The position numbers and the translations under genes were made by a program. Positions 3,198 to 59,486 of a stretch of DNA of 64,000 nt are shown here, piece after piece. The DNA is from Escherichia phage MN01. The first letter of the stretch is position 1, and each line of letters starts with the position of its first letter. Where the stretch lies: sequence record MT129652.1. One strand, written 5' to 3'. The notes under the pieces are model-generated. The model ran no database searches. It worked only from the letters and a program-made list of their open reading frames with translations, and was not told where the DNA came from.

Positions 3198-3202
3198 TTA
3201 TA

Positions 3203-3228
3203 GGGACTCTTCGGAGTCCCTTTTTGCT
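3203..3228 (+). terminator. rho-independent terminator (UUCG tetraloop hairpin + T-tract) after soc
   Basis: GGGACTC-TTCG-GAGTCCC followed by TTTTT. Confidence 0.6.
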
Positions 3229-3273
3229 TTTAATAGAAGCGGTATAATTATTTCAATTACAGAGGAGAATACT

Positions 3274-6400: not shown

Positions 6401-6430
6401 GTGTACATGAAAGATGAACAGTGTATAATA
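6401..6430 (+). promoter_or_regulatory. early-type promoter (GTGTACA -35, 17 nt spacer, TATAAT -10)
   Basis: Member of a repeated promoter cassette family; followed by conserved leader CATACTGAGTTACC. Confidence 0.55.
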
Positions 6431-6476
6431 ATTTCATACTGAGTTACCAAATCGTCCGTAAGATGAGAAAAATAAC

Positions 6477-20726: not shown

Positions 20727-20736
20727 TTAAAAAGTA

Positions 20737-20766
20737 GTGTACATCAGTATGGAGTCTATGTATAAT
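20737..20766 (+). promoter_or_regulatory. early-type promoter (GTGTACA -35, TATAAT -10 inside CAGTATGG/CCATACTG inverted repeat)
   Basis: Cassette family member. Confidence 0.55.
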
Positions 20767-20802
20767 GATTCCATACTGAGTTACCAAATACTGGAGAATA
20801 AA

Positions 20803-24897: not shown

Positions 24898-24925
24898 CTA
24901 GGACCCTTCGGGGTCCTTTTTTATT
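24898..24925 (+). terminator. rho-independent terminator (AGGACCC-TTCG-GGGTCCT + T-tract)
   Basis: UUCG tetraloop hairpin followed by TTTTTT. Confidence 0.6.
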
Positions 24926-24946
24926 TTAAAATATTTTAAAAAAGTA

Positions 24947-24976
24947 GTGTACATGACCCTTGACCTGATGCATAAT
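24947..24976 (+). promoter_or_regulatory. early-type promoter (GTGTACA -35, CATAAT -10)
   Basis: Cassette family member with CATACTGAGTTACAC leader. Confidence 0.55.
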
Positions 24977-25025
24977 GATTCCATACTGAGTTACACAATG
25001 AATCACAAAAACTTTGGAGAATAAA

Positions 25026-41605: not shown

Positions 41606-41634
41606 AAGGGGACCTTCGGGTCCCTTTTTTATTT
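41606..41634 (+). terminator. rho-independent terminator after gene 32 (GGGACC-TTCG-GGTCCC + T-tract)
   Basis: UUCG tetraloop hairpin followed by TTTTTT. Confidence 0.65.
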
Positions 41635-41644
41635 TCAAAAAGTA

Positions 41645-41674
41645 GTGTACAAGTCCTTTGAGCTAAGGCATAAT
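41645..41674 (+). promoter_or_regulatory. early-type promoter (GTGTACA -35, CATAAT -10)
   Basis: Cassette family member followed by CATCAACTACTGATA stem-loop and GAGGA SD. Confidence 0.55.
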
Positions 41675-41712
41675 GATTCCATCAACTACTGATAACAACT
41701 GAGGAAATAAAA

Positions 41713-43050: not shown

Positions 43051-43080
43051 GTGTACAACCAAATGGGGCTATGACATAAT
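43051..43080 (+). promoter_or_regulatory. early-type promoter (GTGTACA -35, CATAAT -10 inside ATGGG/CCCAT inverted repeat)
   Basis: Cassette family member. Confidence 0.55.
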
Positions 43081-43121
43081 GGTCCCATACTGAGTTAACA
43101 ACTAAAACACTGGAGAATAAA

Positions 43122-57683: not shown

Positions 57684-58031
57684 ATGACCAAACAACATGG
57701 ATTAAATATGGAATTACCAATTAAAGCAGTAGGTGAATATATTATTTTGGTTTCTGAGCCAAAGCAAGCTGGTGATGAAGAAACTACAGCATCAGGTATC
57801 GTTATCGGAAAACTCCATCAGGGCGAAATCCCAGAGATGTGTGAAGTATTTTCGGTTGGTCCGGATGTTCCTGAAGGCTTCTGCGAAGTAGGTGATTTGA
57901 CTCCTCTTCCGGTTGGCAAGATTGCAAACGTTCCACATCCTCTGGTTGCACTGGGACTTAAGCAGGCTAAAGAAGTTAAGCAGAAATTTGTGACCTGTCA
58001 TTATAAAGCTGTTCCTTGTCTTTATAAGTAA
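57684..58031 (+). CDS. 31: co-chaperonin gp31 (GroES analogue)
   Basis: C-terminal 100 aa closely match T4 gp31 as remembered ([67 protein letters not shown]); start may be the internal ATG at 57708. Confidence 0.85.
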
Positions 58032-58040
58032 AATTAGCGT

Positions 58041-58048
58041 TATAAATA
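58041..58048 (+). promoter_or_regulatory. late promoter motif TATAAATA upstream of rIII
   Basis: Exact motif about 140 nt upstream of the rIII start. Confidence 0.45.
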
Positions 58049-58188
58049 ATAATATGGATTGGCTGCCGGACCAGTTAGTTAACCGGAGAATCCTAAACGG
58101 TGGACTACAACTGAGAGACTTGCCGAAAGGAAGTGAAATTCAGAAGAACGTGTCCACCAAATATTCACCTCATATTGAGGCTTCTAAA

Positions 58189-58443
58189 ATGTCTTTAAAC
58201 AAACAATTACAACACGCTCTCGAACTGCAACGCACTGCATGGAATAACGGTCACGAAAACTACGGCGCATCTATTGATGTTGAAGCCGAAGCACTGGAAA
58301 TTCTGCAGTATTTCAAACATCTTAACCCGGTTCAAACCGACCTTCGCGCAGTGCTCGAAGCAAAAGATGAACTGAAATTTGCTAAGCCGCTGGCATCTGC
58401 TGCCCGTAAAGCTGTTCGTCATTTTGTCGTAACCCTGAAGTAA
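58189..58443 (+). CDS. rIII: rIII (lysis-inhibition accessory protein)
   Basis: 84 aa from internal ATG (T4 RIII 82 aa); position directly after gene 31. Confidence 0.7.
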   Translation: MSLNKQLQHALELQRTAWNNGHENYGASIDVEAEALEILQYFKHLNPVQTDLRAVLEAKDELKFAKPLASAARKAVRHFVVTLK

Positions 58444-58841
58444 GCTGTAGGTGATTCGCTACCTTAGTGCGGCTAGAAAATCGAGGAGCCGTCGAACCGT
58501 CTGATTAATGATTTGCGAATCATTATAGTTTTAAGACCCCGGCAGTTTTACGGTGTACCTCTTGAATGTTATTCTTATAGCGGCAAGTGCATGCTACCCC
58601 GAGGTGATGGCCAATCGGGAGTACGCCTCAAGGCCTATATATCCATCAGTATATATCTTATCCTCGAGAAATCGAACCCGGAACCTTTAAGCTAACGGTG
58701 TGCAACAGATAAGAGCTATAAGGTATGATGACGAGGTTTATGGTTATCCTGTCGTTAAATATCCGAAACCTAATGTTCCCTTCGAGGGCTTGCGCAGGCA
58801 ATGTCAATAAGTCCTGCATTCTATTTTAAAGAGAATTTAAT
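58444..58841 (+). other. ORF-free, hairpin-rich intergenic region (candidate structured non-coding RNA or regulatory/origin region)
   Basis: About 400 bp with stop codons in all six frames (longest listed ORF 60 aa of implausible composition) in an otherwise densely coded genome; several local inverted repeats. Confidence 0.4.
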
Positions 58842-59003
58842 ATGGCTAAGAAAGAAGTTAAAGTTGTTGATGGCTCCTCCAAACGCGCTGGTTACAAGCG
58901 TGCGTCCAACAAGCGAATCAATCAGGTGACTGATAAACTTCAGGCTCGTGCTCGTGCGGTATTGCGTGCCGATGCAGCTTGCTTTGGTAAGCCGAAAGCA
59001 TAA
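58842..59003 (+). CDS. small basic protein (53 aa)
   Basis: Self-translated MAKKEVKVVDGSSKRAGYKRASNKR...; terminator immediately downstream; not in ORF track. Confidence 0.4.
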   Translation: MAKKEVKVVDGSSKRAGYKRASNKRINQVTDKLQARARAVLRADAACFGKPKA

Positions 59004-59006
59004 GTT

Positions 59007-59034
59007 CAGGGACTCTTCGGAGTCCCTTTTTTAT
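59007..59034 (+). terminator. rho-independent terminator (GGGACTC-TTCG-GAGTCCC + T-tract)
   Basis: UUCG tetraloop hairpin followed by TTTTTT. Confidence 0.6.
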
Positions 59035-59046
59035 TTTCATAAAGGG

Positions 59047-59076
59047 GTGTACAACAGGATTTACCCAGTGCATAAT
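59047..59076 (+). promoter_or_regulatory. early-type promoter (GTGTACA -35, CATAAT -10)
   Basis: Cassette family member with CATACTGAGTTACAC leader. Confidence 0.55.
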
Positions 59077-59117
59077 GATTCCATACTGAGTTACACAATA
59101 AAACACTGGAGAATAAA

Positions 59118-59486
59118 ATGAAAATCAATCTTAACTCATACATCAAAGGTAAAGACCACGACGGTTACAAAGCCATTGAAACTAAAGAAATGCAATGGCA
59201 CTTGTATAAAGAACAGTTTGAATTTGTTGGTTGTATGACTCCTGAAGGTCCTTCTGATGACTTCTCCTGGAAAATTATGGTAACAAACTTTTTTACTGGT
59301 GATACCTACGAACTGAAAACTTTGATTTTGGGTAAGATTCGTTGTAAGACCTATGAAGATGAAGAAACTGGTTATTCTGAAGATGTTACATGGTATCAAA
59401 ATGGTCGCACCACTGCAGACCTTCTGATTGAAAAAATGAAAGCTAAGGGTGAATTAAATTTAGATAATTGGATTAAAGTCGCATAA
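59118..59486 (+). CDS. hypothetical protein (122 aa)
   Basis: ORF in track after CTGGAGAATAAA leader. Confidence 0.4.
   Translation: MKINLNSYIKGKDHDGYKAIETKEMQWHLYKEQFEFVGCMTPEGPSDDFSWKIMVTNFFTGDTYELKTLILGKIRCKTYEDEETGYSEDVTWYQNGRTTADLLIEKMKAKGELNLDNWIKVA

Follow-up and report, generated by a model that had tools for sequence, protein, structure and literature searches.

A covarying kissing-loop domain in the untranslated rIII-30.9 spacer of T4-type phages very probably belongs to an RNA family without an Rfam entry

This study concerns the untranslated spacer between the genes rIII and 30.9 (hereafter the gap) in a 64,000-nt stretch of Escherichia phage MN01 (record MT129652.1; hereafter the window) and, above all, a 149-nt RNA domain within it, named module B. 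The segment belongs to a T4-type, Gaprivervirus-like phage with 97-98% identity to VR26, SP18 and RZ. On the + strand, dCMP deaminase and its neighbours are followed by gp31, rIII, the gap, a gp30.9 homologue and an intrinsic terminator:

57684-58031 (as an open reading frame, ORF), + strand: gp31
58189-58443, + strand: rIII, lysis-inhibition accessory protein of 84 aa (phrog_1457; alignable over its full length with rIII of T4, PEi20, Cronus and others), upstream boundary of the gap; stop codon at 58441-58443
58444-58841, + strand: the gap, untranslated rIII-30.9 spacer
58842-59003, + strand: gp30.9 homologue, basic protein of 53 aa (phrog_1427, E = 2.9e-26), downstream boundary of the gap; ATG at 58842
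59008-59027, + strand: intrinsic terminator at the end of the rIII/30.9 transcription unit (8-bp stem with a UUCG loop, and a T-run)

A first-pass annotation, made by eye on this sequence, had described the gap as free of ORFs, with stops in all six frames, and as bounded by the rIII stop and by a small basic ORF with its own terminator. Both statements hold. Each of the six frames contains at least seven stops between 58444 and 58841, the longest open run is 72 codons, and the ORFs lying inside the gap are only mechanical (at most 60 aa) and unconserved. The downstream protein corresponds to the gene annotated as 30.9 in SP18, VR7, PEi20 and T4; a Pfam match for it was not found. A 129-aa ORF starting at 58054 was rejected as a mechanical over-extension of rIII through the gp31-rIII spacer.

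The gap had also been called hairpin-rich, which did not survive as a statement about energy: the minimum free energy (MFE) of the whole gap was at chance level against shuffled sequence (z = -0.16 on the + strand, +0.12 on the - strand). The above-chance signal for structure comes instead from covariation in relatives. Spacers were aligned from T4, Kha5h, VR25, Klebsiella phage phi1_146043, Edwardsiella phage PEi20, Enterobacter phage EnA02, Aeromonas phage PS49, Erwinia phage Cronus and Citrobacter phage CF1, together with 48 IMG/VR loci recovered via rIII. This comparison showed the gap to be an untranslated spacer within a + strand polycistronic transcript, in which independently folding, conserved RNA modules stand in series (Y-A-B-X-H in the window, then two hairpins ahead of 30.9). 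The earlier proposal of a structured non-coding RNA is therefore strongly supported, with the correction that the gap holds several modules in a row and not a single RNA, and that the best-supported of them, B, covers only the following positions:

58574-58722, + strand: module B, 149-nt RNA domain (comparative fold, covariance model, centroid fold)
58574-81 / 58715-22, + strand: helix P1, 8-bp closing helix
58582-84 / 58633-35 and 58593-604 / 58611-26, + strand: helix P2
58636-42 / 58649-55, + strand: helix P3
58605-10 (UGAUGG, apical loop of P2) with 58643-48 (CCAUCA, loop of P3), + strand: kissing loop L2-L3, 6 bp
58656-62 / 58708-14, + strand: helix P4
58664-67 / 58672-75, + strand: helix P5, with a GAAA loop
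58676-80 / 58696-701, + strand: helix P6
58585-92 (AAGNGCAU) and 58702-07 (GCAACA), + strand: invariant joints

In this architecture P1 closes a four-way junction, two neighbouring arms of the junction are joined by the kissing loop, and the fourth arm leads to a distal three-way junction with a GNRA tetraloop. Twenty-seven distinct B copies were aligned with MAFFT (alignment A6), from which RNAalifold derived a consensus of 44 pairs. Compensatory double changes were present in 19 of these 44 pairs and 98.6% of the cells were paired. None of 500 column shuffles reached any of five measures, and in controls where the 3' partner was slid, pairing fell to 26-42% and compensatory pairs to 2-7. A covariance model (CM), R1, built from A6 had a single match in the 64-kb window, which was module B itself at 185.5 bits. 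The same model found one copy per B-carrying locus, invariably on the gene strand and downstream of rIII, with divergent members scoring 107-158 bits. A larger alignment of 31 distinct sequences (A7) was fitted to the CM, hence leans towards the structure, and agrees with the independent MAFFT alignment; in A7, 26 of the 44 pairs were compensatory and 99.0% of the cells were paired. Over the two alignments together, the slid-partner controls paired in 25-42% of cells.

The kissing loop has six Watson-Crick pairs in 31 of 31 sequences. These pairs are made by five sequence pairings, namely CGAUGG/CCAUCG, UGAUGG/CCAUCA, CUAUGG/CCAUAG, CAAUGA/UCAUUG and CAAUGAU/GUCAUUG, the last being the form of the IMG/VR phage L073 and one base longer than the fourth. 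When partners were swapped between types, the mean was 4.7 pairs and six were reached in 3.6% of swaps only; with this pseudoknot added to the consensus, 22 of 49 pairs were compensatory. The arms of P1 vary between lineages yet stay complementary (UAGC/GCUA, AAAC/GUUU, ACAC/GUGU, CAGC/GCUG and others), and most copies cap P5 with a GNRA tetraloop (GAAA or GUAA). The centroid fold of the single window sequence coincides with the consensus (z = -1.96). Fifty-six columns are invariant, of which 31 are unpaired. An exhaustive column-pair covariation search for further tertiary pairs singled out only the kissing loop, the remaining signals looking phylogenetic, and a candidate AAG/CUU pairing between J1/2 and L6, picked by eye, was unsupported by covariation.

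The structured strand is the + strand. Pairing reaches 99.0% on the + strand versus 94.0% on the - strand, with 69 G-U cells, and the GNRA and UNCG loops read on the + strand. This bears on the idea that the gap acts as DNA, either as the replication origin or recombination hotspot suggested earlier or as a packaging site. A long non-coding stretch within a gene-dense genome would suit such a role, as would the shuffling of modules described below, which implies frequent recombination at the gap. However, pairing is strand-asymmetric, with G-U pairs tolerated on the + strand only and with RNA-type tetraloops, and the covariation of pseudoknot and kissing loop has no DNA rationale. Moreover, no direct repeats or iterons were found in the gap, the sole window-internal repeats lying downstream at 59008-59100. 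A DNA-level function is thus highly improbable and its earlier suggestion is left unsupported.

A small or degenerate protein gene hidden in the gap is harder still to credit. It would be suggested by the mechanical ORFs of 34-60 codons and by Klebsiella phage records, which annotate ORFs over B. Against it stand the stops in every frame and the fact that the ORFs differ between relatives. Lineages moreover differ in the length of B by one or two bases (150, 152, 153, 154 and 162 nt), single-base differences among them; substitutions show no 3-periodicity (25/31/26, p = 0.69) and variable columns are concentrated in helices (odds ratio 2.6, p = 0.005), the variation being concentrated in paired columns with compensatory changes. 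The many 'hypothetical protein' coding sequences that GenBank places over Y, B and H in Klebsiella phage records (L001 1383-1745, L010 1483-1587, others) are probably mis-annotations, in view of the covariation and the missing codon signal. B is also more conserved than its flanking genes: its nucleotide identity to the window copy across genera is 76-93%, versus 61-82% for the coding sequences of gp31, rIII and 30.9. A homologous protein gene in relatives, or a lack of conservation and covariation, had been named at the outset as grounds for abandoning a non-coding RNA; no such gene was found at the site in relatives, and conservation and covariation are abundant.

B was then considered as a unit of distribution. 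Searched alone with blastn, it was found in 407 phage records, one copy each, at 80-100% identity and with at least 80% of B spanned in all but ten; matches fell in one place per record in 407 of 408 records. As 998 phage records match the whole gap, B is carried by about 40% of the phages with the locus. The 407 records with B come from Tequatrovirus, Gaprivervirus, Dhakavirus, Moonvirus, Karamvirus, Kanagawavirus, Roskildevirus and Klebsiella T4-type phages. The site is framed by the conserved sequences CTCTTGAATGT and (G)TATGATGACG and occurs in three states: empty in T4, occupied by another module, W, in VR25, and occupied by B in the window; Kha5h, like T4, has no insert. In T4-type phages B always lies upstream of 30.9. 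It starts 3-20 nt after the rIII stop in several of them, and 45 to about 300 nt of variable modules separate it from the 30.9 start, with a module order permuted between genera. Metagenome and viral scans yielded T4-type contigs only, with little extra diversity. A host origin was rejected: blastn gave no match among 5,426 E. coli genomes, and two pattern scans of 185,579 bacterial and archaeal species genomes (one per species) gave 0 matches and 1 chance match, which the CM rejected.

A single copy was found in a phage that is not of the T4 type, PKM.Lu.22.1 (Grimontviridae, 76 kb). In this genome, B stands 9 nt after the stop of an SSB-like gene and is followed by a Y hairpin and an intrinsic terminator, upstream of an ECF-sigma-like gene. 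PKM.Hi.22.6, with 98.5% identical flanks, and the more distant phage 7-11 have the same junction with Y and the terminator, without B. B is thus precisely inserted in PKM.Lu.22.1 and has, in at least one case, entered an unrelated phage family. No target-site duplication was seen at the PKM.Lu.22.1/PKM.Hi.22.6 junction. Besides B, the larger segments specific to one of the two whole genomes are HNH and endonuclease VII homing-type genes, the rest being small ORF swaps. None of the genome-specific segments adjoins B, so this comparison revealed no protein gene acquired with it. PKM.Hi.22.6 also has an insertion splitting its DNA polymerase gene, intron- or intein-like in appearance. In PKM.Lu.22.1 a sigma-70-like TTGACG-18-TAAATT, a consensus match only, overlaps the end of the SSB-like gene just upstream of P1 (L007 1474-1503), and a strong terminator lies downstream of B and Y at 1690-1709; together they could define a stand-alone small RNA of about 200 nt containing both modules.

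Such behaviour recalls the earlier suggestion of a scar left by a lost mobile element. The mobile part of that suggestion stands, B being a present-or-absent cassette moved between phage families, whereas the scar does not, since the RNA fold is intact and selected. More generally, B might be a selfish DNA element, akin to a miniature inverted-repeat transposable element (MITE) or its remnant, whose RNA fold is incidental and of no benefit to the phage. Its presence or absence among near-identical genomes, its precise insertion, the inverted repeat formed by its ends (P1) and the homing-endonuclease nature of the other larger PKM-specific segments would all fit. However, MITEs are multi-copy and B is single-copy in each genome; the 'terminal repeats' of P1 change in sequence and stay complementary, a signature of RNA pairing rather than of transposase sites, and no target-site duplication was seen at the PKM junction. 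In addition, seven internal helices and the kissing loop are kept over 24-30% divergence, 31 unpaired positions are invariant, and tolerance of G-U pairs is unexpected for a DNA element. This explanation is therefore very unlikely.

Known RNA families were searched with Rfam 15 (4227 models), scanning five stretches at E ≤ 10. The scan of 57900-59300 gave no match inside the gap, and B alone (176 nt) gave only an 8-bit match to a C-box-like AUGAUGA snoRNA fragment. The VR25 gap, the gap of the IMG/VR locus L069 and a locus with tandem Y copies gave only matches of 9.8-10.9 bits, far below threshold. ARAGORN detected no tRNA or tmRNA gene in the whole window, and no Rfam group I or group II intron model matched, the element being intergenic between complete flanking ORFs. 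The first-pass annotation had been unable to assign the gap to a known RNA family, and these searches agree with it. No description of an RNA at the rIII-30.9 locus was found in the searchable literature; the only specific reference is a 2003 Biologija paper on rIII/30.9 protein expression, cited in PMC9409239. The family and its architecture, a four-way junction with a kissing loop, appear to be new, as does its conduct as a cross-family cassette. The kind of object is familiar: structured, conserved RNA motifs occur in the untranslated regions of phages.

Self-cleaving ribozymes offer a first comparison. Hammerhead, twister and pistol ribozymes have a patchy distribution across phage families. 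Phage self-cleaving ribozymes (hammerhead, twister, twister-sister, pistol, hatchet) resemble B in their compact conserved core, their intergenic position within one transcript and their patchiness across families. B could be a small self-cleaving ribozyme, or a cis-acting RNA processing or stability element that separates or protects the rIII and 30.9 messages, for instance as a barrier to 3' exonucleases for rIII mRNA or as a defined processing site. The compact fold with invariant junction nucleotides and covarying helices is consistent with this, as is the location of B in a polycistronic transcript shortly after the stop of rIII or, in PKM.Lu.22.1, of the SSB-like gene. On the other hand, B matches no ribozyme covariance model in Rfam 15 and, at 149 nt, is larger than those ribozymes and large for a self-cleaver, and a nuclease barrier alone would need neither invariant unpaired nucleotides nor a kissing loop. 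A ribozyme or processing element accordingly seems unlikely.

A second comparison is with riboswitches. Purine and lysine aptamers combine a junction with a loop-loop contact, and these two and the cobalamin aptamer share with B a P1 closing helix, invariant joints in a multi-helix junction, two neighbouring arms in loop-loop contact and covarying helices. A metabolite- or signal-sensing aptamer that controls gp30.9 in cis would account for this conserved aptamer-like fold with its invariant junction nucleotides and for the position of B upstream of 30.9 throughout the T4-type phages; in PKM.Lu.22.1, B likewise precedes an intrinsic terminator and an ECF-sigma-like gene. However, B matches none of the covariance models of those aptamers and, unlike them, forms an optional cassette of a longer, structured spacer, with no consistent class of downstream gene (30.9 and a sigma factor are unrelated) and no conserved adjoining expression platform. 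T4 and VR25, like many other phages, lack B and still express 30.9, and the terminator with Y in Grimontviridae occurs with or without B and is therefore not its platform. A riboswitch is quite unlikely on this balance.

That B is a member of a structured RNA family without an Rfam entry can be held with high confidence. A function as an autonomous partner-binding RNA domain is put forward tentatively, at somewhat less than even odds. The two together, structure and mechanism, form our best explanation, to which we assign a probability of about 0.5. According to this model, B would be a self-contained folded domain insulated by P1. It would be made on read-through transcripts from the rIII promoters, possibly being released as a stable fragment; in T4, according to PMC9409239, rIII has early, middle and late promoters. 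B would then bind a conserved partner, a protein or small molecule of host or phage, rather than switch a particular gene. This proposal is drawn from the autonomous fold, the invariant unpaired nucleotides and the lack of a fixed neighbour gene or expression platform. Variable neighbours, the variable distance to 30.9 and the expression of 30.9 in relatives devoid of B favour such a domain over a gene switch, and its persistence in an unrelated genome beside unrelated genes, together with its accessory-type distribution, points the same way. The leading guess for its role is host takeover or counter-defence.

Several points weigh against this explanation. The folding energy of the whole gap is unremarkable, and T4 lacks B, which makes it dispensable for the T4-type life cycle. 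The phylogenetic depth is modest, the 31 distinct sequences representing about eight divergent lineages, so that the covariation counts include shared ancestry. A dedicated promoter or terminator for B was not found in T4-like phages, and a discrete B RNA species is a candidate only; a consensus scan of the window gave no sigma-70 or T4 promoter motif just upstream of B, where the sequence is lineage-variable with nothing conserved seen. Expression or end-mapping data for any B-carrying phage were not found in the searchable literature. The step from fold to partner binding is inferred from architecture and distribution only. Finally, B may already be present, unnamed, in large candidate lists, for instance in that of PMC10690425, which holds more than 10,000 viral motifs; the main text of that paper does not mention a T4-type phage.

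On a wider and still tentative view, B could be the founding member of a new functional class of phage RNA, either a ribozyme or a protein- or ligand-binding accessory RNA for takeover or counter-defence, that travels as a self-contained cassette from one phage family to another, unrelated one. The rIII-30.9 spacer would then be a 'landing strip' on which T4-type phages gather RNA modules (B, W, Y, A, X), just as they gather accessory protein genes. Few viruses have been studied as thoroughly as T4-type phages, but this elaborate RNA is unannotated and outside Rfam, and it is found in hundreds of candidate therapeutic phages whose hosts are E. coli, Klebsiella, Enterobacter, Shigella, Yersinia and Citrobacter. 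The accessory cassette pattern with transfer to Grimontviridae is usual for host-range or counter-defence determinants, among which an RNA would be a new sort of player. Its function is directly testable with natural isogenic-like pairs (VR26 versus VR25; PKM.Lu.22.1 versus PKM.Hi.22.6).

The other modules of the spacer are discrete blocks, present, absent or re-ordered between phages. T4 has Y-A-X-H (244-nt gap) and VR25 Y-A-W-X-H; Klebsiella phages have X-Y-B-H and L073 has H-B-X-..., and in more distant T4-type phages (L081-L086, L089-L091) the spacer is missing altogether. In the window these modules are:

58449-58481, + strand: module Y, AGGTGATTCGC-TACCTTAGT-GCGG-CTAGAAAAT; 4-bp stem 58456-59 / 58469-72, conserved 9-nt loop, CUAGAAA tail
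58482-58565, + strand: module A, closed domain common to T4, Kha5h and VR25
GAGG (58483-86) / CCTC (58558-61) and GCCGT (58488-92) / ACGGT (58550-54), + strand: outer helices of A
ACCGTC (58496-501) / GGCAGT (58541-46), + strand: inner helix of A
58506-13 / 58518-25, + strand: hairpin of A, TAATGATT/AATCATTA, UGCG loop
58723-58770, + strand: module X, H-type pseudoknot; lead-in GUAUGAUG; S1 GAC(G)AGG 58730-36 / CCTGTC 58748-53; A-rich linker GTTAAATATCCGAA; S2 GGTT 58742-45 / AACC 58767-70
58775-58792, + strand: module H, GTTCCCTTCGAGGGCTTG; hairpin CCCT (58778-81) / AGGG (58785-88)
58794-58841, + strand: proximal 30.9 leader, hairpins GCAGG (58794-98) / CCTGC (58813-17) and ATTCT (58818-22) / AGAAT (58832-36), read directly from the sequence

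All but one of the inverted repeats listed by eye in the first-pass annotation were recovered, several at slightly different coordinates. CGGCT/AGCCG lies at 58470-74 / 58487-91 and ATATAT/ATATAT at 58637-42 / 58651-56; AATGAT/ATCATT is present as the hairpin of A, and the hairpin CCCTTCGAGGG, given as 58768-78, actually lies at 58778-58788, 10 bases further downstream. The pairing ACCGT..ACGGT had been mis-assigned, the comparative data favouring the second outer helix and the inner helix of A instead.

In module A, the inner helix shows compensatory changes from ACUGUC/GACAGU to ACUGUU/AACAGU and AUUGUC/GACAAU, and the hairpin changes to UAUCGAUU/AAUCGGUA with a UACG loop; the MFE fold reproduces the helices (z = -1.87). 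Module X is supported as an H-type pseudoknot by covariation of both S1 and S2 across 27 loci. Variants of S1 include GUCGUGG/CCAGAC, GUGGA/UCCAC and GUU..GGUU/AACC..AAC, and those of S2 UUGUGAG/CUCACAA, UUAGUAGUU/AACUACUAA, GAUGG/CCAUC and CAAGGUU/AAUCUUG; the loop-tail helix scores a mean of 6.0 with its own partner versus 4.7 when swapped. The lead-in GUAUGAUG(A) at 58723-58730 and its homologues read like a box C or kink-turn half-site, for which Rfam gave only the 8-bit snoRNA fragment match. A 34-codon ORF at 58725-58829, with an AUGAUG start, overlaps X and H and ends 12 nt before 30.9. In T4, two single-base indels offset each other, so that this ORF retains its length. Its absence or truncation in other genera led to its rejection as a gene, as did the fact that the T4 indels also compensate stem S1 of X.

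Module H is an invariant block in all aligned phages, with a G-C swap in Cronus (GCCU/AGGC), and directly follows the rIII stop in other phages. In the proximal leader, the ATTCT/AGAAT hairpin overlaps the weak Shine-Dalgarno AAAGAG; its T4 equivalent is AUUUUC/GAGAAU, and other genera have CUCC...GGAAG hairpins. Several T4 messages carry their Shine-Dalgarno inside a hairpin, as 30.9 does here. The T4 translational operators and leader pseudoknots (the gene 32 leader; the regA and gp43 operators) offer a parallel for X, an H-type pseudoknot that has an A-rich linker and stands in the leader of a gene for a small basic protein. They are unrelated to it in sequence, and Klebsiella-type phages have X far upstream of 30.9, ahead of Y and B. 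Translation of 30.9 or stability of its message is most likely set by the constant modules beside it, namely X, H and the Shine-Dalgarno hairpin, which are better candidates for this than B.

The stem of module Y covaries (CGC/GCG, CAC/GUG, UGC/GCA, AGC/GCU). Its motif AGGTGATTTGCTACCTTAAGTGCAGCTAGAAAT is near-identical in unrelated phages, namely 7-11-like Grimontviridae (L093 is phage 7-11) and the IMG/VR contigs L098, L099/L101/L106/L107 and L105. The 7-11-like phages place Y between a stop codon and a terminator, and L098 (1865-1960) carries two tandem copies in a 5' untranslated region directly after a consensus sigma-70 promoter, TTGACA-17-TATAAT. Y is about 70% identical, in register, to GTTCACTGCCGTACAGGCAGCTTAGAAA, which we take to be the type I-F CRISPR repeat. 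The hairpin CUGCC...GGCAG of this presumed repeat, the part that a Cas6-family nuclease recognises, was kept in no Y variant examined, the Y stem being shifted and covarying independently, and Rfam gave no CRISPR-DR match for Y. Among the modules, Y alone resembles RNA anti-CRISPRs or solitary CRISPR repeat units (Racr; PMC10651486), which are short hairpins, single or tandem, found in unrelated phages and sometimes right after a promoter. With the repeat hairpin missing, a reading of Y as such a unit is a lead only.

Module W (CTATCACGCGTCAGAAAAAGGTTATCTGTCTAAGCCGTGG) occupies the B site in L046 (VR25, about 1885-1930), L047, L051, L054 and L061. A related short form, GGCTCTATGCAGGGAAACCGTAAGACTTAGAGCT, in L069, L073 and L087, looks like a small pseudoknot (ACGG...CCGU; CUCUA...UAGAG); neither form has an Rfam match.

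The terminator and early-promoter-like stretch that follows gp30.9 (59008-59100) is repeated at 75-90% identity at six or more other window sites, and this repetition accounts for the multiple match places per record in the search that gave VR26, SP18 and RZ:

59008-59100: terminator and early-promoter-like stretch after gp30.9
24901-24999, 41609-41682, 3202-3246, 20731-20790, 6419-6447 and 43075-43101: other copies of this stretch

By its sequence, this stretch looks like the mobile terminator/promoter cassettes known from T4-type genomes. PeSL cassettes (early promoter plus stem-loop) of T4-type phages, reportedly described by Arbiol et al. in 2010, are mobile, and like the gap modules they are non-coding units shuffled among T4-type genomes by recombination. 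In contrast to them, B, X, Y and A each occur once in the window, carry no promoter and are far more elaborately folded. A second non-coding stretch, the gp31-rIII spacer (58032-58188, 157 nt), contains a T4 late-promoter-like TATAAATA at 58041-58048.

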